From a virus (lineage: Duplodnaviria > Heunggongvirae > Uroviricota > Caudoviricetes): 64,000 bases of DNA. The stretch lies in IMG/VR virus record IMGVR_UViG_3300020577_006835, positions 68,588-132,587 of that record, one strand, 5' to 3'. The notes beneath the pieces are model-generated. The model made no database searches. It was given only the letters and a program-made list of their open reading frames with translations, and was not told where the DNA came from. Of this stretch, positions 27,595-64,000 are shown piece after piece. Made by a program: the position numbers and the translations under genes. The stretch's first letter is position 1, and the number at the start of each line of letters is the position of its first letter.

Positions 27595-28277
27595 AGGCAG
27601 GAAAGGGGGCTGGCAAGAAAGGTAACGAGTTGACGATCAAGAAGAAGAGAACGCGAGAAGAAGTACTCGCGAGCTTTACCAAGAAGTACAAGGTCGAGGC
27701 CAAGACCGGCTGCTGGGTCTGGCAAGGGGCCGTAGCCAACAGATCCCGAGGGACAGGTATCCGCGGCAACATGCTGGGTGAGACCGGCATCGAGGCTGCG
27801 CACCGAGTCTCGTGGAAGCTATTCAGGCCGGACGAGCCGATCGAGGGCCTCTACGTCGGGCAATCGTGCCACAACGCTCTCTGCGTGAATCCGAAACACT
27901 TGTTCAGCCAGAAGGGTCGACCTGTTCTGGCCGGCGAACATCACCCTCTGTCCAGGCTGAACGACTACACGGTGATGGAGCTGAGGCACCTGCGAGAGCG
28001 CAACCGAAACCGGAACACGCTGCAGAGGCTCGCCGACAGGTACAACGTGTCCAGGGAGGCGGTCCGCAGGATCGTGCACGGCATGTCATTGGGCGGGATG
28101 AAGATCCCCCAGGACATCGTCGAGCAGATCAAGAAGGACTACCAGCCCAAGATCGACATCGTCGAGTTCGTTGGCCTGCCTGAGAACGAGATCGCACGCA
28201 GCACGCTCGAAGGGGCAGCCTCCGGTCGCACCTGGCGACACGTAGGCGAGCCGCCAGTGGACATCGGGTCTCTGTGA
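27591..28277 (+). CDS. HNH endonuclease (HNH_3-type) with C-terminal HTH-like region
   Basis: GCWVWQG...AHRVSWKLF...GLYVGQSCHNALCVNPKHL. Confidence 0.7.
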   Translation: MKAGKGAGKKGNELTIKKKRTREEVLASFTKKYKVEAKTGCWVWQGAVANRSRGTGIRGNMLGETGIEAAHRVSWKLFRPDEPIEGLYVGQSCHNALCVNPKHLFSQKGRPVLAGEHHPLSRLNDYTVMELRHLRERNRNRNTLQRLADRYNVSREAVRRIVHGMSLGGMKIPQDIVEQIKKDYQPKIDIVEFVGLPENEIARSTLEGAASGRTWRHVGEPPVDIGSL

Positions 28278-28531
28278 TCGACCGGGTAGAAGTGGTCAGA
28301 GTGCTCCTCGCGCGTGGCGGTGTCGTCACGCGCGGGGATGTGGAGGCTCTGGTGGAGCGCCTGGACGAGCTGCAGGAGGAGCTGCAGCAGGTGCGACAGG
28401 ACGCCGAAGCGGTGGTCACAGCGGCCGAGGCCTACGCAGACGCGTGCCTGGCCAGCTCCTCGATCGAGGCTTTCGAGGCGCTTCCGACGGTTCTTGAGGG
28501 TTGGCGGAAATTGTACCCTCCGACGAATTGA
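28274..28531 (+). CDS. hypothetical protein
   Basis: ORF track (GTG start). Confidence 0.4.
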   Translation: MIDRVEVVRVLLARGGVVTRGDVEALVERLDELQEELQQVRQDAEAVVTAAEAYADACLASSSIEAFEALPTVLEGWRKLYPPTN

Positions 28532-28594: not shown

Positions 28595-29089
28595 ATGCTG
28601 GTGATCTCCGGTGGGCAGTCGGGTGCCGACATCGGCGGAGTGGTCGGAGCGTTCTCAGCCGGCCACTCCTGCCTCTTCATCGCTTTCCGCGGCTTCAAGC
28701 CGCAGGGCCGCGACTCCCTGCCGAGCGTGATCCCGTACAAGGACGCCGTCATGCCCGAGTGGGCAGTGTCCTACCCCCAGATGCTCTTGGCCCGTACGCA
28801 GCACAACGTCGAGCTGGCAGATGCGACCGTGGTCTTCATCAACACGATGCACCTGAAGGACTCGATCGGCTCGCGGCGTACCATGGAGTACGCGCAGAAG
28901 ATGCAGCGTCCTCGACTCCTGCTCACCCTGTTCGGGCAGTCTGATGTCGAGCCGACGGCGAGCGTGTTGTCCGAGTGGGTTCAACGTGTGAAGCCAGAAA
29001 TCCTGAACATTGCAGGAAGCAGAACTTGCGACGAGGACTTGGTGAGTCGCATAACCGAGAAAGGGTTGAAGCAATGCTTGACGGTGTGA
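28595..29089 (+). CDS. SLOG-superfamily Rossmann-like protein (MoCo-carrier/YpsA-like motif ISGGQSGADIGG)
   Basis: N-terminal LVISGGQSGADIGGVVGAFSAG glycine-rich nucleotide-binding-like motif. Confidence 0.35.
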   Translation: MLVISGGQSGADIGGVVGAFSAGHSCLFIAFRGFKPQGRDSLPSVIPYKDAVMPEWAVSYPQMLLARTQHNVELADATVVFINTMHLKDSIGSRRTMEYAQKMQRPRLLLTLFGQSDVEPTASVLSEWVQRVKPEILNIAGSRTCDEDLVSRITEKGLKQCLTV

Positions 29090-33046: not shown

Positions 33047-33064
33047 CACAAACGTCTTGAAGGT

Positions 33065-33325
33065 TTGGTAGGATCGTGCGATAGGGCTCGCACACCTGAG
33101 GGGGATGAGTTGGAACGCACGGAGCTGTACCAGTACCTTCAAGAGAATCAGATGCTGATCGAGTCCCTGTCCAACAGTGGCCGGGGGATCTGCAAGCGCA
33201 TCACCAAGCTCAAGAGTCAGCACCTGGAGCATCCGGCTGACCAGGGAGTACTCAGCTCCCTGGTCAGCGCGGTGTCCGAGTTCCGGGCCGAGATGCGACA
33301 ACAGGAGAGGAGGGCCGGCAAGTGA
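33065..33325 (+). CDS. small hypothetical protein
   Basis: ORF track (TTG start). Confidence 0.3.
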   Translation: MVGSCDRARTPEGDELERTELYQYLQENQMLIESLSNSGRGICKRITKLKSQHLEHPADQGVLSSLVSAVSEFRAEMRQQERRAGK

Positions 33326-33528
33326 CCCAGAAGGCCGATAAGGCGATCGAAGCGGTCATGGCCGGCGAAGAGGCGTCCGATGTGGTAGACGCGCTGGGAG
33401 AGGGCGCCTTCTCGGCGGCGATGCCGTTGGAGAGGAGGAGCACCTTCGCAAGATCAGGGAAGGCAGCGGGCACCAGGTACAAGTCGGCCAAGAGGCTGGC
33501 ACCTGTGCCGGTCAAGCCTCCCTCGTAA
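33322..33528 (+). CDS. small hypothetical protein
   Basis: ORF track (GTG start). Confidence 0.35.
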   Translation: MTQKADKAIEAVMAGEEASDVVDALGEGAFSAAMPLERRSTFARSGKAAGTRYKSAKRLAPVPVKPPS

Positions 33529-33539
33529 GGTAGAGGTGG

Positions 33540-33773
33540 ATGGCAGAACGAAAGAAGTTGACGCTGAGGGAAGAGCGGGCACAGCAGAAGAAGATGATGG
33601 CGAAGTACGTGGACAACGTCTTCGCCCACCTGCGCAGGAACCCGGGTCGACCGGTGCCCATGCGCAAGCTCGCCGAGACGCAGGAAATGAAGCCGTGGCT
33701 CCCGCCGGGTTTCCCGGAGGAGATCACGAAGAAGTGGGGCCTGAACTCAGGGAAGCTTGCTGACCTGAGCTGA
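33540..33773 (+). CDS. small hypothetical protein
   Basis: ORF track. Confidence 0.4.
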   Translation: MAERKKLTLREERAQQKKMMAKYVDNVFAHLRRNPGRPVPMRKLAETQEMKPWLPPGFPEEITKKWGLNSGKLADLS

Positions 33774-33793
33774 GGTCCCTTTCGCGTTGTGGT

Positions 33794-34141
33794 GTGGTGG
33801 GGTGGAGGTGGTTGAGAGTGAAAGGATTGGTCCACGCGGAAGAGGGGATCGACTCCTCTCCGATTGTCTGGACGTCTGCAAGGTTGCTCGCTCTGGGTGT
33901 ACTTCACCAGGCGGCACACGATTTCTGGAAGGACGACGACCCAGAAGCTGAGGCTGAGAGCGCACGCGAGTGGTTCTACCAAGGTGATGTCGGCGAGCTG
34001 CCGTACTACCGGGTGTGCCAGGAGCTGCGCATCGACCCGGACTGGTTCCTCGACAGAGTCGAGAGAGACCGTCGCGCCTTCAAGGGTATCCACAGACCGT
34101 CAAGCGCGAACGCACCGATGCGGATCTCGCTGAACGACTGA
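33794..34141 (+). CDS. hypothetical protein
   Basis: ORF track (GTG start). Confidence 0.4.
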   Translation: MVGWRWLRVKGLVHAEEGIDSSPIVWTSARLLALGVLHQAAHDFWKDDDPEAEAESAREWFYQGDVGELPYYRVCQELRIDPDWFLDRVERDRRAFKGIHRPSSANAPMRISLND

Positions 34142-36386: not shown

Positions 36387-36833
36387 ATGGGGATGAGCAA
36401 GGAACAAGCACGAGTCTACCACCGCTCCTACTACTACAAGCGGCGACAGAAGCTCTACGATTTCCTCGGTGGAAAGTGCGTGGTGTGCGGTGCAACAGAA
36501 GACCTTGAGTTTGATCACATTGACCCTGCACAGAAGTCGTTCGACATCAAGGATAACCTCACGCTCAGTGAGGCTGTGAAGCAAGAGTTGGAGAAGTGCC
36601 AGTTGTTGTGCCGCGCGCACCACACCGAGAAAACCATCCGGGCGCAGATCAAGGTCAGCTTCGAGCATGGCACGTCGTACGGGTGGCGCAGGGCGCGTTG
36701 TAGTTGTGTAGCGTGCTCGGAGGCCCGCTGGCACTACTACGACAGGCGCAACGCGGCTCGACGTCGCGTGAGAGACAAGCCAAACAAGACCAAGAGACAG
36801 GCTGGGGTGACGGGAACTGGCATACCTCACTGA
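36387..36833 (+). CDS. HNH endonuclease (same family as 24658..25107)
   Basis: ORF 36318..36833, start moved to ATG 36387; GGKCVVCGATEDLEFDHIDPAQK...KCQLLCRAHH; 3' end overlaps the tRNA-like element at 36801. Confidence 0.7.
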   Translation: MGMSKEQARVYHRSYYYKRRQKLYDFLGGKCVVCGATEDLEFDHIDPAQKSFDIKDNLTLSEAVKQELEKCQLLCRAHHTEKTIRAQIKVSFEHGTSYGWRRARCSCVACSEARWHYYDRRNAARRRVRDKPNKTKRQAGVTGTGIPH

Positions 36834-36876
36834 TTCAAAACCAGTGGCACTGTGGGTTCGAGTCCCACCCCCAGTA
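36801..36876 (+). tRNA. tRNA-like gene, anticodon CAA? (irregular D-arm; low confidence)
   Basis: 7-bp acceptor GCTGGGG/CCCCAGT and T-arm GTGGGTTCGAGTCCCAC are good; anticodon stem ACTGA/CCAGT with loop TTCAAAA; D-arm is poor. Confidence 0.35.
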
Positions 36877-36877
36877 T

Positions 36878-36949
36878 ACACCGATAGCTCAGATGGTAGA
36901 GCGCACGACTGATAATCGTGATACGGGAGTTCGATCCTCTCTCGGTGTA
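36878..36949 (+). tRNA. tRNA-Ile (anticodon GAT)
   Basis: 72 nt; ACACCGA TA GCTC AGATGGTA GAGC...CACGA CTGATAA TCGTG...GGGAGTTCGATCCTCTC. Confidence 0.85.
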
Positions 36950-36954
36950 CTCAG

Positions 36955-37028
36955 GCCCACGTAGCACAACTGGATAATGCACCGGACTACGAATCCGGTT
37001 ATTGGGGGTTCAAGTCCCTCCGTGGGTA
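36955..37028 (+). tRNA. tRNA-Arg (anticodon ACG)
   Basis: 74 nt; anticodon stem CCGGA/TCCGG, loop CTACGAA; T-arm GGGGGTTCAAGTCCCTC. Confidence 0.8.
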
Positions 37029-37036
37029 CTTCTCAG

Positions 37037-37110
37037 GGGTCGTTAGCTCAGTGGAGCAGAGCACCACGTTCCGAGCGTGGGGGTCGCAGGTTCGAGTCCT
37101 GCACGGCCTA
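37037..37110 (+). tRNA. tRNA-Arg (anticodon CCG)
   Basis: 74 nt; anticodon stem CCACG/CGTGG, loop TTCCGAG; acceptor has 2 G-U pairs. Confidence 0.7.
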
Positions 37111-37121
37111 CTGAAGCCTGT

Positions 37122-37196
37122 GCGCCAGTAGCTCAGCGGACTCAGAGCGGCGGTTTTCTACACCGAGGGTCGGGGGTTCGATTCCCTCCTGGCGTG
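37122..37196 (+). tRNA. tRNA-Arg (anticodon TCT)
   Basis: 75 nt; acceptor GCGCCAG/CTGGCGT; loop TTTCTAC; T-arm GGGGGTTCGATTCCCTC. Confidence 0.8.
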
Positions 37197-37229
37197 TTGA
37201 AGTAGCAGCAGAAGAAGGAAGGGGAATGC

Positions 37230-37655
37230 ATGAAGAGAAGGATGCGAAAGGCTCTCTTGACGAAGCTCGCCGACTTGTTGGACGACTTCTTCCACACCAT
37301 CAAGCACCTGATTGCCGTGCTGGAGCTGCAGGGTTGGTCGCTGGACAACCTGGCCTTCGGCATGGGCGGCGCGCTGCTGCAGCAGATCGACCGGGACACG
37401 TGTTCCTTCGCCATGAAGGGTTCCTGGGTTCGAGTCGACGGTGTGGAGCGCGAGATCTACAAACAGCCTGTGACCGATTCGAAGAAGAACTCGCTGCGCG
37501 GGCGGCTGGCTCTCATCAAGGATGTCAAAGGACTCTTGACAACAGTAGCTGGTCCGTGCGAAGACGACATCCTCGTCGACACGTATCTCAACGGCGAGGT
37601 GCTCCAGACCTGGGACTACGAACAGGTCAGGGAGCGAGTCCGAGCAGCGATCTGA
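37230..37655 (+). pseudogene. C-terminal fragment (about 140 aa) of a nicotinamide/nicotinate phosphoribosyltransferase (NAMPT-family) gene; the N-terminal catalytic two-thirds are absent from the locus
   Basis: NLAFGMGGALLQQIDRDTCSFAMKGSWVRVDGVEREIYKQPVTDSKKNSLRGRLAL aligns with the NAMPT C-terminus (NIAFGSGGGLLQK..RD..FA.K.SYV..NG.G..VFKDP..D..K.SKKGRLSL); strong RBS; flanked by tRNA and HNH genes. Confidence 0.6.
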
Positions 37656-37751: not shown

Positions 37752-37823
37752 CTGGGTGTAAGTCAGTGGCAGACGGCGCCGTTCGGATCGGCGAGGCCGG
37801 GAGTTCGAGTCTCCCCACCCAGA
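37752..37823 (+). tRNA. tRNA-Pro (anticodon CGG)
   Basis: 72 nt; acceptor CTGGGTG/CACCCAG; anticodon stem CGCCG/CGGCG, loop TTCGGAT; T-arm GGGAGTTCGAGTCTCCC. Confidence 0.7.
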
Positions 37824-37825
37824 CT

Positions 37826-38819: not shown

Positions 38820-39023
38820 GTGGACGAAACCGAGTACCAAGGGCTCGTCGAGAAGTTCACAGAGCTGATTCACGGGTCCGAGGACGCCATGGGGGCCTTC
38901 GCGGCCCACCTGGCCCGGAACCAGCTCACCGCGGCCGCGCTGTACGCGCTGCTCTACAACCACGGCATCCGCTTCGACACCAACGCCATCAGCTCCTGGC
39001 GCAGGCAGAAGGTGAAGCGGTGA
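38820..39023 (+). CDS. small hypothetical protein
   Basis: ORF track (GTG start right after previous stop). Confidence 0.4.
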   Translation: MDETEYQGLVEKFTELIHGSEDAMGAFAAHLARNQLTAAALYALLYNHGIRFDTNAISSWRRQKVKR

Positions 39024-39475
39024 GAGAGGCCGTCGGAGACCTCTGGACGCACCCGGCTCGCATCAAGGTGGTGACGACCAACTGGACGCTCAAGAGCGAC
39101 GGCTCGCTCGTCATGGGTGCCGGCGTCGCCAAGCAGGCGGCAGAGCGTTACCCAGACCTGCCGTACGAGCTTGGTGAGTTCATCGCCGGCTGCATCAAGC
39201 ATGGTCGTGGGCCGTTGCCGGTCTTCGTCGCCCGCTACAACTTGATCTCTCTGCCGACCAAGGTCGACTGGCGGGCTCCGTCGGAGCTGGGCTTCGTCGA
39301 GGAGATGCTCGACAAGCTCGCCAACGATCTGTTCGGCACCTACCCGGTCAGCCAGGACGTGGTCATGCCGAGGCCAGGTTGCGGGCTCGGCGGGTTGCGC
39401 TGGGAGGACGTCAAGCCGATCTGCGAGAGGCACCTTGTGAGCGATCATTACATCGTGATCGACAAGGTGTGCTGA
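39020..39475 (+). CDS. macro-domain-like (ADP-ribose binding/processing) protein
   Basis: VVTTNWTLKSDGSLVMGAGVAKQAAERYP and PRPGCGLGGL resemble the macro-domain motifs NAAN...GGGVAGAI and G.G.YG. Confidence 0.45.
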   Translation: MREAVGDLWTHPARIKVVTTNWTLKSDGSLVMGAGVAKQAAERYPDLPYELGEFIAGCIKHGRGPLPVFVARYNLISLPTKVDWRAPSELGFVEEMLDKLANDLFGTYPVSQDVVMPRPGCGLGGLRWEDVKPICERHLVSDHYIVIDKVC

Positions 39476-39661: not shown

Positions 39662-40486
39662 ATGGACGAAACGCGGGTCCAAGATCTGCTTGACGAGGTC
39701 GAGCGCGAGCGCAACGTCAAGATACTGTTTGCCGTCGAGTCCGGTTCCAGGGCCTGGGGTCTCGACTCGCCTAAGAGCGACTGCGACGTGCGCTTCGTAT
39801 TCACCTACCCGCGCGACCGGTACCTGACGATCCAGCCGCCGAACGACGTCATCGTCCACAAGAACGGCGAGATCGAGCTGGACAGCTGGGAGCTGCGCAA
39901 GGCGCTCGGCCTGCTGACCAAGGGCAACCCGACCTGCATGGAGTGGGTCTTCGCGCAGGTGGTCTACCGCGAGCTGGACTGGTCGCACTGGCCTGGGCTC
40001 AAGGTGCTGCGCGACCTGGCGCACCACTACTTCAACCCGATCGCGACCTACTACCACTACCTGCACATCGCGTCCAACAACTACAAGGACTACATCCGAG
40101 GCCGGGGCGAAGTGCCGGTCAAGAAGCTGACGCACGTGTTCCGCGGGCTCTTCAGCGCGATCTGGGTGCTGCAGAACACGACTCTGCCGAAGGTCATGTA
40201 CACCGGCGAACTCACGGACCCGATGCCGGCGCACAACTTCAACACGCTGATGGTTGCCGCCCTGCCGCGCGTGCGCGAGTACCTCACGGAGCAGGAGTGC
40301 GACGAGCTGGTTCAGATCCCTGCCATGAAGAGGGAAGGTGTCGACACGATGCAGGAGCCGGCCTGGCTGGAGCCGTACCTGGACACCGAGCTGCGTGTGC
40401 TCAAGGATGCTGCCAGCTCGGTGCCCAAGCCGCTGCACCAGGACTTCAAGATGCTGGACGAGTTCTTCCGGGCTTCGCTACGCTGA
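39662..40486 (+). CDS. Pol-beta-superfamily nucleotidyltransferase (PF10127/RlaP-like)
   Basis: ILFAVESGSRAWGLDSPKSDCDVRFVF fits the GS..G...SD.D signature; about 270 aa with a helical C-terminal domain. Confidence 0.55.
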   Translation: MDETRVQDLLDEVERERNVKILFAVESGSRAWGLDSPKSDCDVRFVFTYPRDRYLTIQPPNDVIVHKNGEIELDSWELRKALGLLTKGNPTCMEWVFAQVVYRELDWSHWPGLKVLRDLAHHYFNPIATYYHYLHIASNNYKDYIRGRGEVPVKKLTHVFRGLFSAIWVLQNTTLPKVMYTGELTDPMPAHNFNTLMVAALPRVREYLTEQECDELVQIPAMKREGVDTMQEPAWLEPYLDTELRVLKDAASSVPKPLHQDFKMLDEFFRASLR

Positions 40487-40504: not shown

Positions 40505-41008
40505 ATGAACGAGGATGTGACGCTGAAGGAGCTGCGTGAGCAGCTGTCCGCCGACCTGAAGGCGGGCAAGATCGTAACCTGCGCCTGCTGCGAGCAGAAG
40601 TGCAAGGTGTACAAGCGTACCATCACGAGGACGATGGCGATCGCCCTCCTGCTCTTCACCAGGTACACGAGACCGGGCGAGCCGTTCCACCTGCCGACCC
40701 TTCTGTCTGACCCTCCGGGCGATCTGCCGGCCACGCTGCGCGCCGGCTTCCACGGCGGTGACCCGGTCAAGCTCAAGCACTGGGGCATGATCGAGTCCGC
40801 ATCCAAGGAGAAGAGGCCGGACGGCAGCAAGCGCAACGGCTGGTACGTCGTCACCCCGTTCGGGCGCAGCTTCGCCCGTGGCGAGGTTTTCGCCAAGAAG
40901 CACGTGCGCACCTACAACGAGCGCGTGCTGCGCATGGAGGAGCCGTTGATCAAGATCTCGACCGCTCTGGGCGAGGGGTTCGACTTCAACGAGCTGATGA
41001 GTGCGTGA
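40505..41008 (+). CDS. hypothetical protein
   Basis: ORF track; RBS AAGGAGATGAACG. Confidence 0.5.
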   Translation: MNEDVTLKELREQLSADLKAGKIVTCACCEQKCKVYKRTITRTMAIALLLFTRYTRPGEPFHLPTLLSDPPGDLPATLRAGFHGGDPVKLKHWGMIESASKEKRPDGSKRNGWYVVTPFGRSFARGEVFAKKHVRTYNERVLRMEEPLIKISTALGEGFDFNELMSA

Positions 41009-41634
41009 CCGGACGCATGTACCCGGCTGAGTTGCAGAGTCTGCATGATCGAGTCCTGCACGGGCTCGCGACCAAGTCGCTGAAGTACTCGAAGCAGGGG
41101 TTCACGTTGCGCAGCGGGAAGACGAGCCACGTGCTCATCGACGCCTCGCGCACGATCAAGTCAGGGGAGCACTTCGAGGACATCGGGTACCTTTGCGAGC
41201 GCTTCCTGCACTCGCTCACCGACCACTGGCCTGTGGCCGTCGGCGGGCCGGCAACGGGATGCGACCCGCTGTGTGCAGCTCTCTTGGCGACTACCAGCGT
41301 GCGCCTGGATTGGTTCTCGGTACGCAAGGAGCCCAAGAACCGTGGCCTCGACTACGGCTGCCTCAGCGGTGCCTACCCAACCAGTGGTGAGTCGGTTGTC
41401 CTGTTCGAGGACGTGCTGACCACCGGCGGCTCGCTGCTGCATGCGATCGAGCAGTGCCGGCCTAAGATGGACATCCTGGGCGTGTTCGTGCTCGTTGACC
41501 GGGAGGAGGGTGGCAGGGAGGCGATCCAGGCTGCGCTGCCGGACGCGCTGTTTCACGCCGAGTTCACTCTGGACGAGATCGAGGCCTACAAGCGCGCCCA
41601 GGCCGGCGGCCGGATGCCCTGGGACGATGAGTGA
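41005..41634 (+). CDS. type I phosphoribosyltransferase, orotate-PRTase (PyrE)-like
   Basis: PRPP-binding motif VVLFEDVLTTGGSLL; GFTLRSGKTSHVLIDAS resembles the OPRT N-terminal motif. Confidence 0.6.
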   Translation: MTGRMYPAELQSLHDRVLHGLATKSLKYSKQGFTLRSGKTSHVLIDASRTIKSGEHFEDIGYLCERFLHSLTDHWPVAVGGPATGCDPLCAALLATTSVRLDWFSVRKEPKNRGLDYGCLSGAYPTSGESVVLFEDVLTTGGSLLHAIEQCRPKMDILGVFVLVDREEGGREAIQAALPDALFHAEFTLDEIEAYKRAQAGGRMPWDDE

Positions 41635-44994: not shown

Positions 44995-45357
44995 ATGAGT
45001 GAGTTGAGTTTCAAGAGCGACCCGACCGAGGACATCAGACGGGCGCAGGTGGCCGAGCTGAACGGCAGCGTCCAGGAGGACACCGTCGAGCAGGCGCGCG
45101 AGAAGCTGGCAGCCCAGTACGGCCAGCTGTGGAACACGGAGCAGCTGCAGCAGGACTTCAGCGTCACGGGCTTCATGGCCCCGTACGTCACGGTGCGCCG
45201 CAAGCGCGACGGGGCGACCGGCACGCTGCAGTTCACGCACAACCCGCGCTTCTACTTCCGCTGGCAGCCGGACGTGCCCGAGGAGCTGAAGGACGTGATC
45301 GACGAGCTGCCCGACACGACGCTCCGCGCCTACGCGATCGGCCCCAAGGACGGCTGA
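44995..45357 (+). CDS. hypothetical protein
   Basis: ORF 44950..45357, start moved to ATG 44995 with RBS GAAGGAGAGAGG. Confidence 0.45.
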   Translation: MSELSFKSDPTEDIRRAQVAELNGSVQEDTVEQAREKLAAQYGQLWNTEQLQQDFSVTGFMAPYVTVRRKRDGATGTLQFTHNPRFYFRWQPDVPEELKDVIDELPDTTLRAYAIGPKDG

Positions 45358-45359
45358 GG

Positions 45360-45671
45360 GTGAAGAGGGTTCTCAAGTACGCCATCACCCCGGGCAGGGT
45401 CTTCCCGCTCACGGTCCCGTACAAGAACTTCAAGGTGCTCTGCGTTCAGGAGCAGCACGGCAGACCGCAGCTCTGGGCACTGGTCGATGAGGAGAAGGAC
45501 TTCGACCCCAACGCCGAGTATCAGCACGACTTCTTCATCTTCGACACCGGCTCCCCGATCTTCGACCCGGAGTTCGAGGAGATCGGCGAGTACGTGGGCA
45601 CCTTCCAGCTCAAGGGCGGCGACCAGGTCTTCCACGTCTTCGAAGCTCTGAAGTGGACACCAGGTAGCTGA
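45360..45671 (+). CDS. hypothetical protein
   Basis: ORF 45129..45671, start moved to GTG 45360 (VKRVLKYAITPG). Confidence 0.4.
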   Translation: MKRVLKYAITPGRVFPLTVPYKNFKVLCVQEQHGRPQLWALVDEEKDFDPNAEYQHDFFIFDTGSPIFDPEFEEIGEYVGTFQLKGGDQVFHVFEALKWTPGS

Positions 45672-45844
45672 AATCTCTTGCACGGCTGCTCGGTGCCGTG
45701 CTAATGCTTGACCTTCTCAGGCAGCGTTTCACCGGGCCAGGGCCTGGTATCCGAAAGGGTACCAGGCCTGAGGCTCTGAGGATCAACGACATGACCAGCT
45801 TTGAAAGGAGGATAGCCATGAAGCGAATGTAAAGGAGGCTATTC

Positions 45845-47752: not shown

Positions 47753-48283
47753 ATGAACGTCGAGAAGGTGGCCTACGCGATCCGCAAGCTGCGCCGCATC
47801 CGCGAGACCCTGCAGCCGGAGCAGTTCGACATCGGCGACTGGACCAGGGAGAACTGGACCAAGGATGGCAGCTGCGGCTTCACTGCGTGCGCGATCGGTT
47901 GGCTGCTGCACGAGGACTCGGAGACGCAGGCGTACATGGGTGTGACGCTCGTGCCCACCCTAGACCGCCGCGCAACATCCCTTGCTGTCATCAAGGATGA
48001 TGGCCCGCCCGAAGCGGACGCCTTGTGTCAGTACCACATCGTCGCCTCGATGTTCGACATCCAGACCGAGCAAGCGCTGCACCTGTTCTCCCCCATGGGG
48101 TACTGGGATCTTGACCCGCACAAGCCCACGCTGACCGACGTGCTCGACAGGTTCACCGTGTTCTTCTACATGAACGGTGGCACGTCCGAGATGCTGCTCG
48201 ACGCCGATCAACAGGTGCAGCAGATCGTGGAGCGCGCCCTCTGCGACTTCGAGGTCTACGAAGAGGAGCCAGTCAGTGAGTGA
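47753..48283 (+). CDS. hypothetical protein
   Basis: ORF 47693..48283, start moved to ATG 47753 with RBS GGAGGGGGG. Confidence 0.5.
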   Translation: MNVEKVAYAIRKLRRIRETLQPEQFDIGDWTRENWTKDGSCGFTACAIGWLLHEDSETQAYMGVTLVPTLDRRATSLAVIKDDGPPEADALCQYHIVASMFDIQTEQALHLFSPMGYWDLDPHKPTLTDVLDRFTVFFYMNGGTSEMLLDADQQVQQIVERALCDFEVYEEEPVSE

Positions 48284-48941
48284 GAAGGCGCTGCCGACGA
48301 CCGAGGTGTCGGAGGACTTCATCCGGTACATGCGCAACCGGATGCTGGTCAGCTACTACAAGTACGGCCCTCTGGCCGAGGCGTACCCGCACAGGGTCAA
48401 CGCGCTCGAAACGCTGCAGGACAGGCTCAAGAAGTACGAGGCCACCGGCAACACCGAGTGGCTGGTCGATGCGGCCAACATGGCGATGATCGAGTTCATG
48501 CGCCCTGCACACCCGCAGGCACACTTCCGCCCGACGGACTCGAACGAGTCGCCTGGCAGGGTGACCAAGGTGGGCCGCACCAGCAAGAGCAACAAGGAGA
48601 TCCGCGAGGAGGCTCGGCACGCAGCTGCCGACCGCTTCCACGCGCTGGTCGAGAAGACGGGGCCACTGCCGAGCAGCGTGTTGTGCGCCAGCGAGCCGTG
48701 GCCTACGAAGACCAACAAGAAAGGAGGTGAGAAAGGAATGACGAAGGCAGAGATGGTCCGCGTCGCGAACGAGATCGTGACGTCGGCAGTGCTCGCGGTC
48801 GACAAGGAAGCCGACCGCAAGGTTCTGAAGCCGCAGTGGCGGAAGGATCTCAAGACCAAGATCGTCTGCGCGCTGGAGACGGCGGCAGCGGAAGGTCTCC
48901 CCAAGCGCGGCCGCAAGGCTGGGCTGAAGGTGGCGGCCTGA
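48276..48941 (+). CDS. hypothetical protein
   Basis: Part of ORF 48177..48941, from GTG 48276 (VSEKALPTTEV), overlapping the previous stop. Confidence 0.45.
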   Translation: MSEKALPTTEVSEDFIRYMRNRMLVSYYKYGPLAEAYPHRVNALETLQDRLKKYEATGNTEWLVDAANMAMIEFMRPAHPQAHFRPTDSNESPGRVTKVGRTSKSNKEIREEARHAAADRFHALVEKTGPLPSSVLCASEPWPTKTNKKGGEKGMTKAEMVRVANEIVTSAVLAVDKEADRKVLKPQWRKDLKTKIVCALETAAAEGLPKRGRKAGLKVAA

Positions 48942-49005
48942 TCCGAACCGAAGCTTTGGAGGCCTGGTTGACGCCCACAGCCAGGCCTTCCAACTTCGCT
49001 CCCGC

Positions 49006-49335
49006 ATGACCCTCTGGGAGTTCATCTGCGAGGTGAACAGCATCATCTCGCTGTCCGCCATCGAGCTAGACAGGATCACCGCGGCCATCGACATGATGGT
49101 CGTGCGGATGGAGATAAAGGCGCGACCCCAGAAGCTGCAGGCCGACTGGTCTCTGGACGAGGGTTCCGGGTTCATGCCCTACGCCCAGGAGGGGTCCTAC
49201 TCCGAGGCGGACAAGCTCGCGGCCCAGAAGCTGGCCGTCAAGGTCTTGAGAGAGGCCGCAGCCAACGGGTTGATCGTCCCATCACCTGTTGCGACCGCTG
49301 AATACCTAGAGGAGGAGATGGCCCTTGGCCCGTGA
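49006..49335 (+). CDS. hypothetical protein
   Basis: ORF track. Confidence 0.45.
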   Translation: MTLWEFICEVNSIISLSAIELDRITAAIDMMVVRMEIKARPQKLQADWSLDEGSGFMPYAQEGSYSEADKLAAQKLAVKVLREAAANGLIVPSPVATAEYLEEEMALGP

Positions 49336-52415: not shown

Positions 52416-52550
52416 GTGGGTGTAGTTTAGAGGTCTAGAACGGCCCGAACGGGAGCTGCTGATGGCCACAGCTAACAGCCCTGGGACTGATCACCCTGGG
52501 TCAACTGGGCTCCCCGGTGGACGACGCAGGTTCGAATCCTGCCACCCGCA
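52416..52550 (+). ncRNA. 135-nt tRNA-like element: canonical acceptor, D-arm and T-arm, with a 55-60 nt insertion in the anticodon region and a long variable region
   Basis: GTGGGTG TA GTTT AGAGGTCTA GAAC ... GCAGGTTCGAATCCTGC CACCCGC A; followed by ACCA; internal direct repeat CCCTGGG x2. Confidence 0.35.
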
Positions 52551-55810: not shown

Positions 55811-57361
55811 ATGTCGTACCTCGGCTACAAGCTGCACCCTGAGAGCAGGGACAGACTGCTGCACCGCTTCCCCGCGGTGCACCCGGAGGTGGTCGCACAC
55901 CACGTGACGACCGACCTGCTGGGGAAGCGGTACACGGCCTTCAGGCCCGAGGATGCGCACGTCGAGGTCATCGGCCACGCAGCCAACAGCCTGGTCCAGG
56001 CTGCCGTGCTGCGCGTCAACGGCAAGACGCACCGTGACGACGGGGAGCCGTTTCATGTCACACTGTCCGTGAACAGGAAGCTCGGAGGGTCGCCCAAGGA
56101 CTCGAAGGAGCTGATCCGCCAGGGTTACGAGAAGGTGGACCCGTTCACGATCCAGGCCGAGCCCGAGTATTTCCAGGAGGAAGTCACGCCAGTTTTGTCC
56201 AAATACGATCACGTCATCCGTGCGGTGCAGGACTTCACAGGGTTGAAGCCGTACCTCGTCGGCGGAGCTGTGCGTGACGCGATGCTGGGCAAGCCGTCCA
56301 AGGACACGGACCTGGTGGTCGTGGGCGGCCACGACAAGCTGCACAAGCTCGGCTTCAAGCCGATCAAGAAGGACTTCCCGGTCTTCACGCACCCGAAGTT
56401 CCCCGGCGTCGAGGTTGCTCTGGCCCGCGGCGAGAAGAAGACCGGCACCGGCCACAGCGGCTTCGACTGGCACGAGGCGGCCGACCTGACCACGGACTTG
56501 AATCGCAGGGATTTCACGGTCAACGCGATGGCCTATCACCCGGACGACGGCGTGATCGACCACCACGGCGGCATGAGCGACCTGCAGAACAAGAAGCTGC
56601 GCCACGTGTCGGATGCCTTCTCTGAGGACCCGCTGCGCACGTTCAGGGCGGCCCGCTTCGCGGCCAAGCTGGGCTTCGATGTCCACCCGGACACGATCCC
56701 AGTGCTGCGAGCGACCAATCCGGAGCTGCCGGCGCTGTCCAAGGAGCGCGTGCGCGACGAGTTCAGCCGGGCCATGATGACCAAGAACCCGAGCCGGTTC
56801 TTCAAGACGCTCAAGCTGTCCGGCTCGCACGAGCACTGGTTCCCGGAGGCTGCGCACCTGAAGGACTCGACGATGCGGGCGCTCGACTCGGCTGCGGCCG
56901 GCGGGGCGTCCGAGGAGGCCAGGCACCTGGTCCTGACCCACGCCATGTCACCGGAGACGATCAAGGCCTTCGACGCACGGCTGGGTGTGGGAGCGGCCGA
57001 CACGGCACGCAAGCTGACGCACGCCAAGTACTCGCCCATGGGCACGGCCAGGCACCAGAGCCCGGACGCGGCCGCGGAGCACTGGAGGGCGGTCCGCTCG
57101 ACGCTCATGGGGCCTCATCTGCAGGCGCTGGCCCACCAGGGCGGCAACCAGGTGGAGCACCTGAAGGGGCTCTTCAAGAGGCTGGGAGAGGTCAGGATCG
57201 AGCCCCAGAAGGGCAAGAGGGCCGACGTGGCGGCCATTCGCAGCACGTACGCAGCTGCGGCCGCGCAGTACCTCAAGGAGAGCGTGAACAAGGTCGACGA
57301 GCTGATCGCAGAGGCATTGAAAGGAATGAATGGGTATGGGGATCGGACCGAGCTGGGGTAG
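55811..57361 (+). CDS. fusion of N-terminal 2H-phosphoesterase-like domain (two HxT motifs) and class II tRNA nucleotidyltransferase (CCA-adding enzyme / PcnB family)
   Basis: N-terminal HHVTTD and FHVTLS; then LVGGAVRDAMLGKPSKDTDLVVVG (GGxVRD...DxD head motif), RRDFTVNAMAY, DPLRTFRAARFAAKLGF. Confidence 0.7.
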   Translation: MSYLGYKLHPESRDRLLHRFPAVHPEVVAHHVTTDLLGKRYTAFRPEDAHVEVIGHAANSLVQAAVLRVNGKTHRDDGEPFHVTLSVNRKLGGSPKDSKELIRQGYEKVDPFTIQAEPEYFQEEVTPVLSKYDHVIRAVQDFTGLKPYLVGGAVRDAMLGKPSKDTDLVVVGGHDKLHKLGFKPIKKDFPVFTHPKFPGVEVALARGEKKTGTGHSGFDWHEAADLTTDLNRRDFTVNAMAYHPDDGVIDHHGGMSDLQNKKLRHVSDAFSEDPLRTFRAARFAAKLGFDVHPDTIPVLRATNPELPALSKERVRDEFSRAMMTKNPSRFFKTLKLSGSHEHWFPEAAHLKDSTMRALDSAAAGGASEEARHLVLTHAMSPETIKAFDARLGVGAADTARKLTHAKYSPMGTARHQSPDAAAEHWRAVRSTLMGPHLQALAHQGGNQVEHLKGLFKRLGEVRIEPQKGKRADVAAIRSTYAAAAAQYLKESVNKVDELIAEALKGMNGYGDRTELG

Positions 57362-57668
57362 GAGTGCAAGGGTCAGCGCAGCCGCGACTCCGACATCGAA
57401 GACGGCGCCCAACCCGAATCCGCACAGGTTTCAGATCCGCTGGATCAAGGAGTACTCGAACTGCACTGCGGCGCTGGTGCACTACCCGGACTGCGACAAC
57501 TTCGAGGGCGAGAAGCTGCTGGTCTTCTCTGGGATGTGCGCCGCGAAGATCAGGGCCATGAGAGTGCTCGACCCACACTTCAGGGAGGACATGAACTTGA
57601 TCGCGCGTCTCCGACCTGACGAGCTAGGCATGAGGGTGTTGAAGAAGATCGCGATCGAGAAGAAGTGA
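57330..57668 (+). CDS. hypothetical protein (start uncertain)
   Basis: ORF track; overlaps the end of the previous gene. Confidence 0.35.
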   Translation: MGMGIGPSWGRSARVSAAATPTSKTAPNPNPHRFQIRWIKEYSNCTAALVHYPDCDNFEGEKLLVFSGMCAAKIRAMRVLDPHFREDMNLIARLRPDELGMRVLKKIAIEKK

Positions 57669-57671
57669 GAC

Positions 57672-58292
57672 GTGAGAAAACTGATCCTGGTTCGCCACGG
57701 TGAGTCCGCTGCCAACGTCAGCGAGATCATCAGCGGTGACCCGCAGACACCGTTGACCGACCTGGGCGTGCACCAGGCGACCAACACCGGCAAGCAGATC
57801 GCGATGAAGTACGACCCGCGAGAGCTGCAGATCGTGGCCAGCCCGTACAAGAGGGCGCACGACACAGCTCTGCACATCGCACGCGAGATCGGTCACGACC
57901 CGTCGTCGATTGTGCTTGACCCGGAGCTGCGCGAGCGCCACTTCGGTGAGTTCGAGGGTAGGCACGTCGACTTCCAGAAGGTGCCCGGGTATGTCGTCCA
58001 GGTACGCAAGGGCTACAACCGCGCCAACGAGCACTTCAGGCCTGATGGTGGTGAGTCGCTGGTCGACGTGAGCAACCGCGCCGTGCCGGCGATTCAGCGT
58101 CACCTGGCCGCGTTCCCCGGCAAGCACTTGTTGGTCGTGGCGCACGGGCACGTCATCAAGGCCTTCCACGGCTGGCACCAGGGGCACTGGGACAAGATCC
58201 CTCGCGTGCAGAACGCCGAGGCCCGTGAGTTCGATCTGAAGGAGTCTCACGTCGGTGTAGAGGCTCTGATCGCCGAGCTGCTCTCGCAGTAG
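57672..58292 (+). CDS. histidine phosphatase superfamily (phosphoglycerate-mutase-like) protein
   Basis: GTG start; LILVRHGESAAN (RHG motif)...VVAHGHVIKA. Confidence 0.7.
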   Translation: MRKLILVRHGESAANVSEIISGDPQTPLTDLGVHQATNTGKQIAMKYDPRELQIVASPYKRAHDTALHIAREIGHDPSSIVLDPELRERHFGEFEGRHVDFQKVPGYVVQVRKGYNRANEHFRPDGGESLVDVSNRAVPAIQRHLAAFPGKHLLVVAHGHVIKAFHGWHQGHWDKIPRVQNAEAREFDLKESHVGVEALIAELLSQ

Positions 58293-58317: not shown

Positions 58318-59589
58318 ATGCTCCTCGTGGACGACTTCGAGAGCGCTCCCGTCATGGGGTGGATCTCTCCGAAAGGGGAGGTCCACGAGCTTGGCGGTTA
58401 CAACAACCACGACCGTTGGGCCTACGCCAAGCACGGCGTCTCTGCGGACTTCCTCATGTCCAAGGGGTGGGTGCGCAAGGCGCATCGAGACTCCTACGAG
58501 GCTGGCAGCGACAGCGCTCTGCCGCGCGTGCTGAAGCACGTTCGCCGGCACCACCCGGACGTCGGTGAGTTCTACTTCGACACGCCGTCGCAGAAGACGC
58601 TCGGAGGCGTGCGTACCTGGCTCGTGCCCGTGAGCCGTCCCGGTGCGAAGCAGCTCTTGGGGGAGGGCCACAACGAGGTCCCGGCCTACGGCTGGATCTC
58701 TCCCACCGGAGAGACTCATGACCTGGGGGGTTACAACGACCACGATCGCTGGGCAGAGCGTGTGCAAGGCATGACGAGCGATCAGCTCCTGAGCAAGGGT
58801 TGGATTCGCAAGGGGTCGCCGCACGCCTATCAAGCCGGCAGCGACAGCGCGCTACCACGCGTGCTGAAGCACATTCGCCTACACCACCCTATGGCTCAGA
58901 ATTTCTACTTCGACACGCCGTCCGAGAAGCATCCGGGCGGTCTGCGCTCGTGGCATGTCCCTGTGCGCATGCCAGGCTCGAAGCGGCTGCTTGGCGACGT
59001 GCCAAAGGGTGTGTGGCTGACCAGGGATAGTTCCGTGGTGAAAGAAGTCGTCGAGGCCATCGTGCGTGGCCGCTATGCGGGTGGGCGCGGGGTCGACCCT
59101 GTTGCGCAGTGGAACGCGTACTTCAACAACCGCCCAGCGGGGTGGATCACACCCACGGGCGACTTCCACTCGCTCTCCGACCTACCTGAGGGTAGGCGCA
59201 CGCACCCGCGTTGGATCGAGGCCAACCAGGACATCGTCAAGCAGTACGGTCACCTGGTGGTCAAGGGTCCGCACGCTGCAGAGAACACACACGACGCCAT
59301 GATGCGCGGTGGCTGGGTCCAGAAAGAAAACAAGGATCGCTACCGTGTTTGGGGTCCTGAGGCATTGAAAACCGTTCAGGACCATGTGAAGAAGCACCAC
59401 CCTGAAACCAGGGAGGTGACGGTCGAGATCGTGAACCCTGCAAAGGGTGGTACGAGCTTCAAGTCCCCGGTCTACGAGAGCGAGGATGCCATGCGAGCCT
59501 CGCTCGCAAGCTGGTTGATTCACATCGCGTTGGGTGGAGGGGCAGGTGGGCATCGTTCGCTCGATCGGTACGGACTTCAAGAACCCTGA
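58318..59589 (+). CDS. protein built of three tandem repeats of about 100 aa each
   Basis: Repeat 1 and repeat 2 share GWISP.GE.H.LGGYN.HDRWA...SKGW.RK....Y.AGSDSALPRVLKH.R.HHP....FYFDTPS.K..GG.R.W.VPV; the third copy is diverged. Confidence 0.55.
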   Translation: MLLVDDFESAPVMGWISPKGEVHELGGYNNHDRWAYAKHGVSADFLMSKGWVRKAHRDSYEAGSDSALPRVLKHVRRHHPDVGEFYFDTPSQKTLGGVRTWLVPVSRPGAKQLLGEGHNEVPAYGWISPTGETHDLGGYNDHDRWAERVQGMTSDQLLSKGWIRKGSPHAYQAGSDSALPRVLKHIRLHHPMAQNFYFDTPSEKHPGGLRSWHVPVRMPGSKRLLGDVPKGVWLTRDSSVVKEVVEAIVRGRYAGGRGVDPVAQWNAYFNNRPAGWITPTGDFHSLSDLPEGRRTHPRWIEANQDIVKQYGHLVVKGPHAAENTHDAMMRGGWVQKENKDRYRVWGPEALKTVQDHVKKHHPETREVTVEIVNPAKGGTSFKSPVYESEDAMRASLASWLIHIALGGGAGGHRSLDRYGLQEP

Positions 59590-62598: not shown

Positions 62599-63158
62599 TG
62601 GAGCATTACTATCAGAGTGTTCAAGGTTGGTTCGTCGAGGGCGATATAGCTTTCTACAAGACCCTGCTTTCAATGATTCCGGACGGCGGGGTTTTTGTTG
62701 AGGTTGGCTCGTGGAGAGGGAGATCCTTCTCATACATGCTCGTCGAGGCCTTGAACACCAACAGGCAGATCAAGATGGTCTCCGTCGACCACTTCGGCGG
62801 GTCACCAGAGGAGCACATCTTTTTCGGTGCCGACAGCGGTGAGGTAAGGAACTGTTTCCTTAGCAACGCTTCCAGGTCGGGCTACCCGTACGAATTGATC
62901 GAGGCCCCCTCACTGGTAGCCGCCGAGCGGTTCCAGGATGAGTCTGTCGATGCGGTTTTCATCGACGCTGCCCACAACGAGCAGGATGCAACTGCGGACT
63001 TCGCCGCTTGGTTGCCGAAGGTCAAAGTAGGGGGAGTACTCTCCGGGCACGACTCCCATTTCCCTGGCGTTCAAGCGGCGTGGGCGAACAACGGGCTGCA
63101 GCCCATCATCGTTGGTGACACGGAGGCAGGCGGGTCCTGCTGGTATCTCATCAAGTAA
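62599..63158 (+). CDS. TylF/MycF-like SAM-dependent O-methyltransferase (paralog of 55227..55778)
   Basis: VEVGSWRGRSFSY, VSVDHFGGSPEE, VFIDAAH, LSGHDSHF; start set at GTG 62599 within ORF 62451..63158. Confidence 0.5.
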
Positions 63159-63161
63159 GTG

Positions 63162-63188
63162 TTGACAACCACTTGGAGAGGGTGCTAG
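63162..63188 (+). promoter_or_regulatory. promoter-like motif TTGACA-N14-GTGCTAG (copy B of duplicated element)
   Basis: gTTGACAaccACTTGGAGaGGGTGCTAGAGGCGCC. Confidence 0.45.
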
Positions 63189-63278
63189 AGGCGCCCTCGA
63201 AACGTCGGGCAGCGACGTGAGCATGGTGCTCGAAGCCGAGAGGCACTGCACTAGACAGTCAGAGAACAGGAGGAGACC

Positions 63279-64000
63279 ATGTCCTACGAGGACAAGCTGG
63301 CGCAGATCCGCGCCCTCATCGCCCAGTTCAACGAGGCCGCTGAGGAGGGCGAGAAGATCGACGCCGCCGAGTTCGAGCGCAAGCTCAGGAAGACCGGCGC
63401 AGTCAACGAAGAGACCCTGCGTGCAGCCACGTGGGAGGACTTCGAGAAGGCAGGCCTGCCGCGCATCATGGCTCGCCGTGTGGCAGAGCTGGCGCGCGTC
63501 ACCAAGCCGGGCGAGAAGGAGTTCGTCAGCTCCAAGAAGGCCGAGCGCATGTCGGTCAGGGAGCTGGTCGAGGCCTACAACCCGAACGAGACGATCGAGA
63601 GCCCGGTCACGAGCCGCCTGAAGGCCGTGTCGCAGGGCAAGCGGTGCCTCGTGCTCAAGAACGACGGGACGGTGCACGTCGAGCCCACGGTCAAGCTGCT
63701 CGGCGAGGTGCAACAGGGCTACGCGGAGCGCCCGCTCTTCTACGACCCGGACGATCTCTCGCCACTGCGAGTGGTCCGCGTCGGCGAGAAGGCCAGCTCC
63801 GTGGTCGACGAGAACCCGGTCTTCCGCGGCGAGGCACTGCGGCCGGACGGCACGTGCCAGCGCACGGACCTGAACTGGGGCGAAATCCCGTTCGAGACCA
63901 GGCAGCTGGTCTACCTGATCGCCCTCGATCCGTCCTCCAGCTCAGTGGCCACGCCCGACCTGGCCATGAAGCTGTACGATCTCGCCTCCGAGACCGGCAA
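63279..64000 (+). CDS. hypothetical protein, 3' partial (runs off window)
   Basis: ATG 63279 after RBS GGAGGAGACC; high-GC3 open frame to the end of the window. Confidence 0.5.
   Translation, partial: MSYEDKLAQIRALIAQFNEAAEEGEKIDAAEFERKLRKTGAVNEETLRAATWEDFEKAGLPRIMARRVAELARVTKPGEKEFVSSKKAERMSVRELVEAYNPNETIESPVTSRLKAVSQGKRCLVLKNDGTVHVEPTVKLLGEVQQGYAERPLFYDPDDLSPLRVVRVGEKASSVVDENPVFRGEALRPDGTCQRTDLNWGEIPFETRQLVYLIALDPSSSSVATPDLAMKLYDLASETG

Follow-up and report, generated by a model that had tools for sequence, protein, structure and literature searches.

Here, we examine a 64,000-nucleotide (nt) stretch of a tailed phage genome (Caudoviricetes; IMG/VR record IMGVR_UViG_3300020577_006835, positions 68,588 to 132,587), hereafter the window, and within it a gene that is predicted to join a compact 2H phosphoesterase domain to a class II CCA-adding nucleotidyltransferase, with a histidine phosphatase gene lying a short way downstream. 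On balance, and with moderate confidence, we read this arrangement as a phage module that heals tRNA 3' ends and restores their CCA, the 2H domain and the phosphatase standing in for the HD domain of the E. coli-type enzyme. If so, what is new is a CCA-adding or repair enzyme in which, as far as sequence can tell, the HD domain appears to have been replaced by an unannotated mini-2H family together with a dedicated histidine phosphatase. The 2H-CCA architecture was not found described in the literature that we searched, including two later surveys (PMC9503650, PMC7824862), one key RNA-repair survey lying outside that search. An original prediction, made by a model from the letters and their open reading frames (ORFs), had proposed a fusion of this kind followed by a phosphatase; it placed both ORFs correctly (55811..57361 and 57672..58292), and all of the motifs that it quoted were found. 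The features concerned, with positions counted from the first letter of the window and proteins numbered in amino acids (aa), are as follows.

55811..57361, + strand: fusion gene in the ORF list, 516 aa, ATG start; predicted compact 2H phosphoesterase plus class II CCA-adding nucleotidyltransferase without the HD active site.
55811..56176, + strand: predicted 2H phosphoesterase domain, aa 1-122, with motifs HHVT (nt 55898-55909) and FHVTLS (nt 56051-56068).
56252..56602, + strand: nucleotidyltransferase head, aa 148-264, with GGAVRD...DTD and RRDFTVNA; Pfam PolyA_pol, 4.7e-21.
56672..56854, + strand: neck or RNA-binding region, aa 288-348; Pfam PolyA_pol_RNAbd, 7.4e-11; the nucleotide-selecting EDPLR precedes it.
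56855..57361, + strand: helical body and tail region that has lost the HD phosphohydrolase site, as judged from the missing PF01966 match and from alignment with HD-containing CCA proteins.
57672..58292, + strand: histidine phosphatase, branch 1, 206 aa, GTG start; His_Phos_1, 2.2e-36.

The C-terminal part of the fusion protein is, on its sequence, a class II CCA-type nucleotidyltransferase that has lost the HD active site, so that both the nucleotidyltransferase assignment of the original prediction and its view that this is not the usual bacterial CCA-HD arrangement are borne out. The PolyA_pol and PolyA_pol_RNAbd matches both exceed the Pfam cut-offs, and the class II catalytic and nucleotide-selecting motifs are intact (GGAVRD at aa 151-156, DTD at aa 165-167, RRDFTVNA at aa 232-239 and EDPLR at aa 272-276) and invariant in an alignment with bacterial CCA enzymes, the identity to bacterial multifunctional CCA proteins being 35-38%. 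The best NCBIfam models are CCA-adding ones (NF008137, 3.1e-66, 224 bits), PcnB scoring lower (5.8e-30, 104 bits). Every NCBIfam CCA equivalog cut-off is missed because only the head and neck (aa 146-350) align, the NF008137 score coming to about half of its cut-off of 451 bits. The HD phosphohydrolase family PF01966 was not matched by the fusion protein in the Pfam search, nor by its closest relatives. When the protein is set against HD-containing multifunctional CCA proteins (P0207, P0240, P0250 and P0222), ‘LTHAM’ and a 19-residue deletion take the place of ‘LTHDLGK...GHE’, and the upstream ‘HPExD..G.H’ segment is deleted too.

The N-terminal domain leaves almost no trace in conventional searches. 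It has no Pfam match even at E<=10; phmmer against the PDB with the single sequence and a word-indexed homologue search were both empty; a PDB search with the family profile returned chance matches only; and its sole PHROG match, phrog_36523, is unannotated. No protein of a deposited phage covers at least 80% of the fusion, and an identical protein occurs on five other contigs (P0151). The family to which the domain belongs is large: a full HMMER scan of 1.84 billion representatives gave 525 relatives at E<1e-3, and a profile search put the family at 2074 clusters or more at 90% identity. Its members are mostly stand-alone proteins of 115-140 aa on large phage-like contigs, have no Pfam annotation and are mostly unnamed, the remainder being called only ‘hypothetical protein’.

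Two HxT motifs (HHVT at aa 30-33 and FHVTLS at aa 81-86) could by themselves be a matter of chance, but their conservation throughout the family, together with a 2H fold, argues otherwise. Across 89 aligned homologues, T84 and S86 never vary, and conservation of at least 90% is seen at H31, T33, R75, H82 and S98. An AlphaFold2 model of the domain built with the family alignment reached a predicted local distance difference test (pLDDT) score of 92.4 and a predicted template modelling score of 0.84; a usable model came only from that alignment, the single-sequence model of the whole fusion protein having a pLDDT of 38. With the domain model as query, the top Foldseek match in the PDB was 6u05, a kinase-cyclic phosphodiesterase (CPD) structure of the fungal tRNA ligase Trl1 from Candida, and in a viral library the Trl1-like RNA ligases of giant viruses ranked above Acb1. 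The Pfam family tRNA_lig_CPD (PF08302) gave weak matches in 25 of the 89 members, the best at 6.3e-6, the window copy itself being without one. On the strength of the conserved motifs, the confident model, the Foldseek ranking and these weak matches, the N-terminal domain is, as modelled, a minimal 2H phosphoesterase of about 120 aa, nearest to the CNPase/tRNA-ligase-CPD branch and not a classical LigT. Of the ‘2H/LigT-like’ label in the original prediction, the 2H part is thus upheld by the fold, the structural ranking and the conserved residues, and the LigT part fits less well, CNPase and tRNA-ligase CPDs being nearer; the Pfam domain search matched PolyA_pol and left the N-terminal region unmatched.

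Enzymes of the CNPase/tRNA-ligase-CPD branch hydrolyse 2',3'-cyclic phosphates of RNA or nucleotides to 2'-phosphates. For the phage domain, the predicted opening of a ribose cyclic phosphate is more secure than the identity of its substrate, because the family also occurs in polyvalent proteins and cREC fusions that have been read as processing signals or ADPr>p.

The most telling evidence for a shared function comes from gene linkage. In seven of the eight related contigs with enough flanking sequence, the 2H domain, the CCA enzyme of this clade and a presumably orthologous histidine phosphatase are either fused or found within about 5 kb of one another, and the three probably serve together to clean up and rebuild tRNA 3' ends that are damaged or immature. 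Fusions of 2H to the CCA enzyme are seen in P0151, P0001 (81% identity), P0155 (about 40-44% identity) and P0157; P0100 places an AAA_33 kinase between the two, P0169 joins the kinase directly to the CCA enzyme, and P0161 is a Rosetta-stone fusion of His_Phos_1 to the CCA enzyme, such that the accessory domains of the clade (2H, kinase and His_Phos_1) all occupy the same N-terminal slot. The polynucleotide-kinase-like P-loop domain, which was not matched by Pfam in the fusion protein of the window, is thus present in P0100 and P0169, and in L018 it is encoded by an adjacent gene. Among the unfused arrangements, L018 (42% identity) is the most complete version of the cassette, with 2H, AAA_33 kinase and His_Phos_1 genes running consecutively 1.7 kb upstream of the CCA gene (2410-4349 and 6001-7290). 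In L009, the 2H-CCA fusion gene shares 4 nt with the phosphatase gene; in L005/L006, overlapping phosphatase and CCA genes are accompanied by a separate 2H gene 2.7 kb downstream, directly after a NUDIX gene; in L007, a separate 2H gene lies 3.6 kb upstream of the CCA gene, and the phosphatase gene follows the CCA gene with one gene between them; and in L004 the phosphatase is 4 kb upstream of the fusion. The recurrent AAA_33 kinase gives the cassette of the relatives the composition of the kinase-CPD pair of Trl1 and CNPase. A functional tie between the 2H-CCA fusion and the histidine phosphatase, which the original prediction had guessed from adjacency, is strongly supported at the sequence level by the P0161 fusion and by the gene neighbourhood that is repeated in relatives down to about 42% identity.

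The pattern breaks down in L011 and L019, both of which have enough flank. In L011 (7001-9700), the CCA enzyme (P0165, 899 aa) keeps the HD motif, so the missing module there fits a logic of loss and replacement. P0165 is unusual in other ways, with extensions of about 340 aa on both sides, one of them with a weak Tad3 match, and with a gene surrounded by T4-like genes for baseplate, neck and sheath (gp13, gp15 and sheath), an unexpected setting that may point to association of this CCA enzyme with the virion.

The histidine phosphatase itself is readily recognised, its His_Phos_1 match of 125.8 bits standing well above the cut-off of 21.7, and the family identity read from RHGES in the original prediction therefore stands. 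Its catalytic set RHG...R...E...HG is intact (RHGES at aa 8-12, YKRAHDT at aa 59-65 with R61, ERHFGE at aa 88-93 and AHGHV at aa 157-161). Against the characterised subfamilies (CobC, GpmA/B, PspA, SixA and GpgP), all 19 NCBIfam matches fall well below their cut-offs, the best being ribazole_cobC at 84 bits (cut-off 163), and its PDB relatives are found at E 1e-13 or weaker. It is closer to its counterparts in the related loci: the window enzyme shares 31-84% identity with the phosphatases that L003, L004, L005, L007 and L009 encode near their CCA genes or in fusion with them, and the linked phosphatases compared, a set that leaves out the L018 enzyme, share a mutual identity of 31-84% (88-346 bits), compared with about 55 bits to the best PDB relatives. 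Homologues of the window phosphatase are rare, occurring in 27 of 50,697 deposited phage records, and many of those 27 are not genuine phages; the repeated co-location with CCA genes is therefore not a base-rate effect.

The mechanism that we propose starts from computed results, namely the fold, the conservation of catalytic-type residues, the disappearance of the HD site and the evolutionary linkage of three activities (four with the kinase); from these we infer the tRNA 3' end as the substrate, the order of the steps, the product chemistry and the source of the damage, be it host nucleases or the phage's own CCA-less tRNAs. The CNPase/Trl1-CPD-like 2H domain at the N-terminus would open a 2',3'-cyclic phosphate at an RNA 3' end, leaving, by the chemistry of its family, a 2'-phosphate and a free 3'-OH. 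The separately encoded histidine phosphatase, as a proposed 2'(3')-phosphomonoesterase, would strip the remaining phosphomonoester, and the fused class II nucleotidyltransferase would add or complete CCA. The HD domain of E. coli Cca is said, in the 2004 work of Yakunin et al., to have 2',3'-cyclic phosphodiesterase, 2'-nucleotidase and phosphatase activities, and the 2H domain with the histidine phosphatase would be a non-orthologous replacement of that domain, lost in this phage clade. The phage fusion thus has the same class II head and neck as the E. coli-type enzyme (C-terminal HD, NF008137), and, by the activities reported in the 2004 study, the same logic of a CCA polymerase joined to cyclic-phosphate opening and 2'/3' phosphate removal; where the E. 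coli type has its HD site, however, the phage protein has a deletion, and the work is predicted to fall to an unrelated 2H domain of the metal-independent type and a separate phosphatase.

Several points weigh against this proposal. Ends left by RNase P, RNase Z and exonucleases carry a 3'-OH, and because canonical processing gives such ends, a source of cyclic phosphates must be postulated for the 2H domain and the phosphatase. The phosphatase looks generic by sequence, reaching no NCBIfam equivalog cut-off; we know of no member of the histidine phosphatase superfamily that acts on RNA ends. The most distant clade member (L019, 37% identity) has neither a phosphatase nor a 2H gene within 6 kb of its CCA gene. 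Other settings of the 2H family are polyvalent proteins of 1,700-3,800 aa that also contain ART-PolyVal, NUDIX and GNAT domains, and fusions to cREC_REC (P0017) and NUDIX (P0032); for such contexts, processing of nucleotide signals or of ADPr>p has been suggested (PMC5512222 section 20; PMC9503650). In jumbo phages such as Atu_ph07 and Phosso, the stand-alone 2H gene lies beside topoisomerase, ClpX and IF3 genes with no repair genes nearby. The enzymatic steps of the module are, moreover, predictions: the three-step repair chemistry of the original prediction is a well-founded inference from fold, HD loss and linkage.

The tRNA genes of the window bear on the purpose of the module. ARAGORN finds 20 of them, spaced 1-9 nt apart, none of which encodes CCA, most reading discriminator-A, C, T. 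The original prediction had counted about 21, and the additional one is probably a 135-nt tRNA-like element at 52416..52550 (+ strand; Rfam tRNA, 38.7 bits) that ARAGORN misses by default and calls, with the -i option, as a tRNA-Val(cac) with a 42-nt insert; this atypical element may be a tRNA interrupted by an intron or in some other way. A search for self-cleaving ribozymes (theta/HDV-like, hammerhead and others) beside the tRNA genes with Rfam at gathering thresholds gave tRNAs only.

Other RNA-repair genes were sought as well. A Pfam scan of concatenated window ORFs, covering those of 85 aa and above outside positions 1-21566, 24658-25107, 28274-28531, 30980-34093, 45330-45683, 48273-49175 and 62910-63713, found no RNA ligase, Tpt1/KptA, Macro or NUDIX protein, and phmmer with the Rnl1, Rnl2-type ligase, Macro and NUDIX proteins of related loci found nothing in window ORFs of 50 aa or more. 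That no RNA ligase was detected argues against the repair of anticodon breaks of the PrrC/RloC type in this phage. The Pfam scan turned up instead an RlaP-family nucleotidyltransferase, a circularly permuted YpsA protein (cpYpsA), a fragment of NAPRTase and a PRTase. The RlaP gene (39662..40486, + strand, 274 aa; PF10127, ‘RNA repair pathway DNA polymerase beta family’, E 1.7e-51), which gives the window another nucleotidyltransferase of RNA-repair type, lies 16 kb upstream of the CCA gene, with a PRTase-like gene (41005-41634) and ORFs without a match as its neighbours; RlaP proteins are usually linked to RNA ligases. An ORF at 39020-39475 that looked Macro-like by eye was dropped, having no Pfam support. 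The NAPRTase fragment is a 141-aa ORF (37230-37655, + strand) that matches only positions 155-222 of the profile (E 1.3e-12) and lies between the tRNA cluster 36801-37197 and tRNA-Pro 37752-37824; this remnant of a NAD-salvage enzyme could be a split, decayed or interrupted gene.

With tRNA genes that lack CCA, a need to mature the phage's own tRNAs accounts for the CCA enzyme just as well, and on this reading no host defence would be involved: the CCA enzyme would serve the 20 or so CCA-less tRNAs, each of which, at so close a spacing, needs trimming and CCA addition, and the 2H domain and phosphatase would merely tidy processing ends. The chemistry would be that of the healing module, only the biological purpose being different, and CCA-adding enzymes are indeed common in tRNA-rich large phages (498 phage records carry a match; PMC7824862). 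Hosts, however, own CCA-adding enzymes, especially where their tRNA genes lack CCA (30 of 45 in M. tuberculosis, PMC10435456). Neither a 2H domain nor a phosphatase is required by canonical 3'-OH ends, the polynucleotide-kinase-like AAA_33 domain of the relatives has no role in maturation and is typical of break repair, and the Rfam search gave no self-cleaving ribozyme that might supply cyclic phosphates beside the tRNAs, all of which makes a purely domestic role rather unlikely in our view. Should own-tRNA maturation prove to be the whole story, the module would still be a new accessory arrangement, of modest interest. A variant in which the 2H domain is itself a trimming nuclease, akin to the 3'-5' exoribonuclease Usb1, cutting pre-tRNA trailers and leaving a cyclic or 3'-phosphate for the phosphatase to clear before CCA addition, would account for the phosphatase without host nucleases and would suit trailers of only 1-9 nt; an RNase role for phage 2H domains was also considered by Iyer et al. 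2017 (PMC5512222). Yet in structure the 2H domain resembles Usb1 far less than it does CNPase or the Trl1 CPD, and the kinase fusions are left unexplained. Together with the fact that we know of no precedent for removal of tRNA trailers by a 2H enzyme, this leaves the variant very improbable.

A different view would separate the domains altogether, the 2H part clearing an immune signal or an ADP-ribose derivative and its fusion to the CCA enzyme being a case of ‘polyvalent protein’ stringing, in which counter-defence domains are joined with no shared substrate. The polyvalent proteins and the cREC_REC and NUDIX fusions described above speak for this, as does L016, where a 2H gene directly follows a Macro gene near NAPRTase and NMNAT-NUDIX genes, and it is the role proposed for the 2H domains of polyvalent proteins by Iyer et al. 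2017 (PMC5512222). We nonetheless hold it to be distinctly unlikely here, given that the sole sequence-level signal of the family points to tRNA_lig_CPD, that the window protein has two domains and is not polyvalent, and that the partners are RNA-end enzymes (CCA nucleotidyltransferase and AAA_33 kinase) in several independent arrangements, which is hard to understand without a shared RNA substrate.

Whether the tRNA 3'-end healing module serves as a dedicated counter-defence, the 2H-CCA fusion, the phosphatase and, in relatives, the kinase rebuilding tRNA 3' tails after cuts by host immune or toxin RNases whose products end in a cyclic phosphate, is a possibility that we put forward tentatively. 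The cutting of tRNAs now counts among the major anti-phage strategies, and the known phage answers, spare tRNAs and the kinase-phosphatase and ligase system of T4, both target anticodon-loop damage. Opening of a cyclic phosphate and removal of a phosphate, coupled to CCA synthesis, would be the counterpart at the 3' tail and could explain how a phage withstands attack on the acceptor end; such a module would protect against immunity aimed at tRNA tails, against which replacement tRNAs encoded by the phage are no help. Cleavage of the tRNA acceptor end that leaves a 2',3'-cyclic phosphate is known for the toxin CdiA-CT(EC869) (PMC9071432), and CCA-tail-directed immunity for Cas12a3, phage resistance to which is called ‘yet unknown’ by its authors (PMC12851939). 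The counter-defence role given in the original prediction is no more than plausible: the phage's own tRNAs lack CCA, no ligase was detected in the scanned window ORFs and no defence system that leaves a cyclic phosphate at the tRNA 3' tail is tied to the module. RuvC-type cleavage, that of Cas12a3, is expected to leave a 3'-OH.

Beyond this phage, the analysis gives a testable function to a large unannotated phage family of about 120-aa proteins with a minimal CNPase-like 2H fold, assigns a predicted RNA-end role to a clade of histidine phosphatases, a superfamily for which we know of no earlier link to RNA repair, and offers a clear case of what would be non-orthologous replacement of the HD domain of a bacterial CCA enzyme.

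Among known systems, the fungal and plant Trl1 CPD and vertebrate CNPase share the two HxT motifs with the phage domain, in line with the weak PF08302 signal, and their pairing with a P-loop kinase is matched by AAA_33 in the phage relatives. Their CPD, however, is about 200 aa long and the phage 2H domain about 120 aa, fused to a CCA polymerase and not to a ligase, and the Tpt1/KptA or ligase that would complete a Trl1-type pathway was not detected in the scanned window ORFs. The T4 Pnkp and Rnl1 repair of PrrC-cleaved tRNA-Lys is likewise a case of phage end-healing of tRNA damage by a host nuclease that leaves a 2',3'-cyclic phosphate (reviewed in PMC7824862), although there a HAD-type phosphatase, a kinase and a ligase reseal anticodon-loop breaks, whereas the module described here is CCA-coupled, shows no detected ligase and draws on other superfamilies. 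Acb1, the anti-CBASS 2H protein of the T4 57B family, matches the phage domain less well in structure than the RNA-end CPDases do, has no sequence similarity to it and has no link to genes for CCA enzymes, kinases or phosphatases; an Acb1-type anti-CBASS nuclease was considered for the 2H domain and rejected, its closest structural and sequence neighbour not being Acb1. In eukaryotic signalling, UBASH3/Sts proteins carry a 2H domain and a PGM-type histidine phosphatase in one polypeptide without a nucleotidyltransferase, a resemblance that we note as a lead only.

The phage 2H family likewise resembles, by description, the 2H domains of the polyvalent proteins of Iyer et al. 2017 (PMC5512222), its members occurring in ART-PolyVal, NUDIX and GNAT proteins and as solo genes of large phages. 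In that study no link to RNA ligases was reported, and roles as RNases or in the degradation of signals were preferred, whereas here the family is tied to CCA enzymes, kinases and phosphatases, and in two of three sampled solo loci it lies within 2-4 kb of an Rnl1 or Rnl2-type RNA ligase. In L012 (460-1584 and 5001-5399), a solo member is 3.4 kb from a T4 Rnl1-type ligase; in L016 (4489-5369 and 7519-8589), the overlap with the Macro gene is 1 nt and the locus also holds an RNA_ligase (PF09414). These solo loci are consistent with RNA-repair contexts and at odds with the published remark that solo and polyvalent phage 2H domains never associate with RNA ligases.

Two further ORFs adjoin the genes of the module in the window.

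57330..57668, + strand: 112-aa ORF between the fusion and phosphatase genes; phrog_13501 at 5.3e-17, a PHROG without a function.
58318..59589, + strand: 423-aa protein with three repeats of about 110 aa, ‘GWIxPxG...H..WA...GWxR...HHP’, directly after the phosphatase gene.

The first of these means that, contrary to the original prediction, the phosphatase is not the gene next to the fusion. It is missing from the closest relative (L009, 81% identity), where the overlap of the two flanking genes was noted above, and is probably an insertion outside the core of the module. The 423-aa protein has no Pfam or PHROG match. A protein of this type follows the phosphatase in L009 as well, and because P0005 (aa 20-138) and P0081 (aa 416-517) carry its repeat domain in fusion with the 2H domain, it may be a further member of the module.

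The wider setting is that of a phage genome with a G+C content of 62.7%, for which megablast of the region against the 50,697 deposited phage records found no close DNA relative. Immediately upstream of the fusion gene, Pfam identifies a UDP-galactopyranose mutase, a GT2 glycosyltransferase and a methyltransferase; Pfam families first described from mycobacteriophages are present in the window (Phage_L5_gp82) and in related contigs (GP88). Together, these upstream genes and families suggest an actinobacterial host. The large terminase and portal genes are both present, each interrupted by HNH or intein-like inserts.

1604-4987, + strand: terminase large subunit, 1127 aa, unusually long, with intein-like blocks.
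5288-9286, + strand: portal, 1332 aa, unusually long, with HNH-endonuclease matches at aa 771-921 and intein-like blocks.

Their length and these matches suggest intein or homing-endonuclease insertions in both. Nearby, a 390-aa ORF (10746-11918, + strand) with a glycine-rich ‘GAGGGSGGGS’ segment appears tubulin/FtsZ-like by eye and has no PHROG match. Elsewhere in the window lie genes for the circularly permuted YpsA-type SLOG protein (28595-29089, + strand; PF12694, 1.2e-18) and for a protein with a dATP/dGTP diphosphohydrolase N-terminal domain (23916-24260, + strand; PF18909, 5e-15), predicted nucleotide-centred functions of a kind typical of phage-host conflict.

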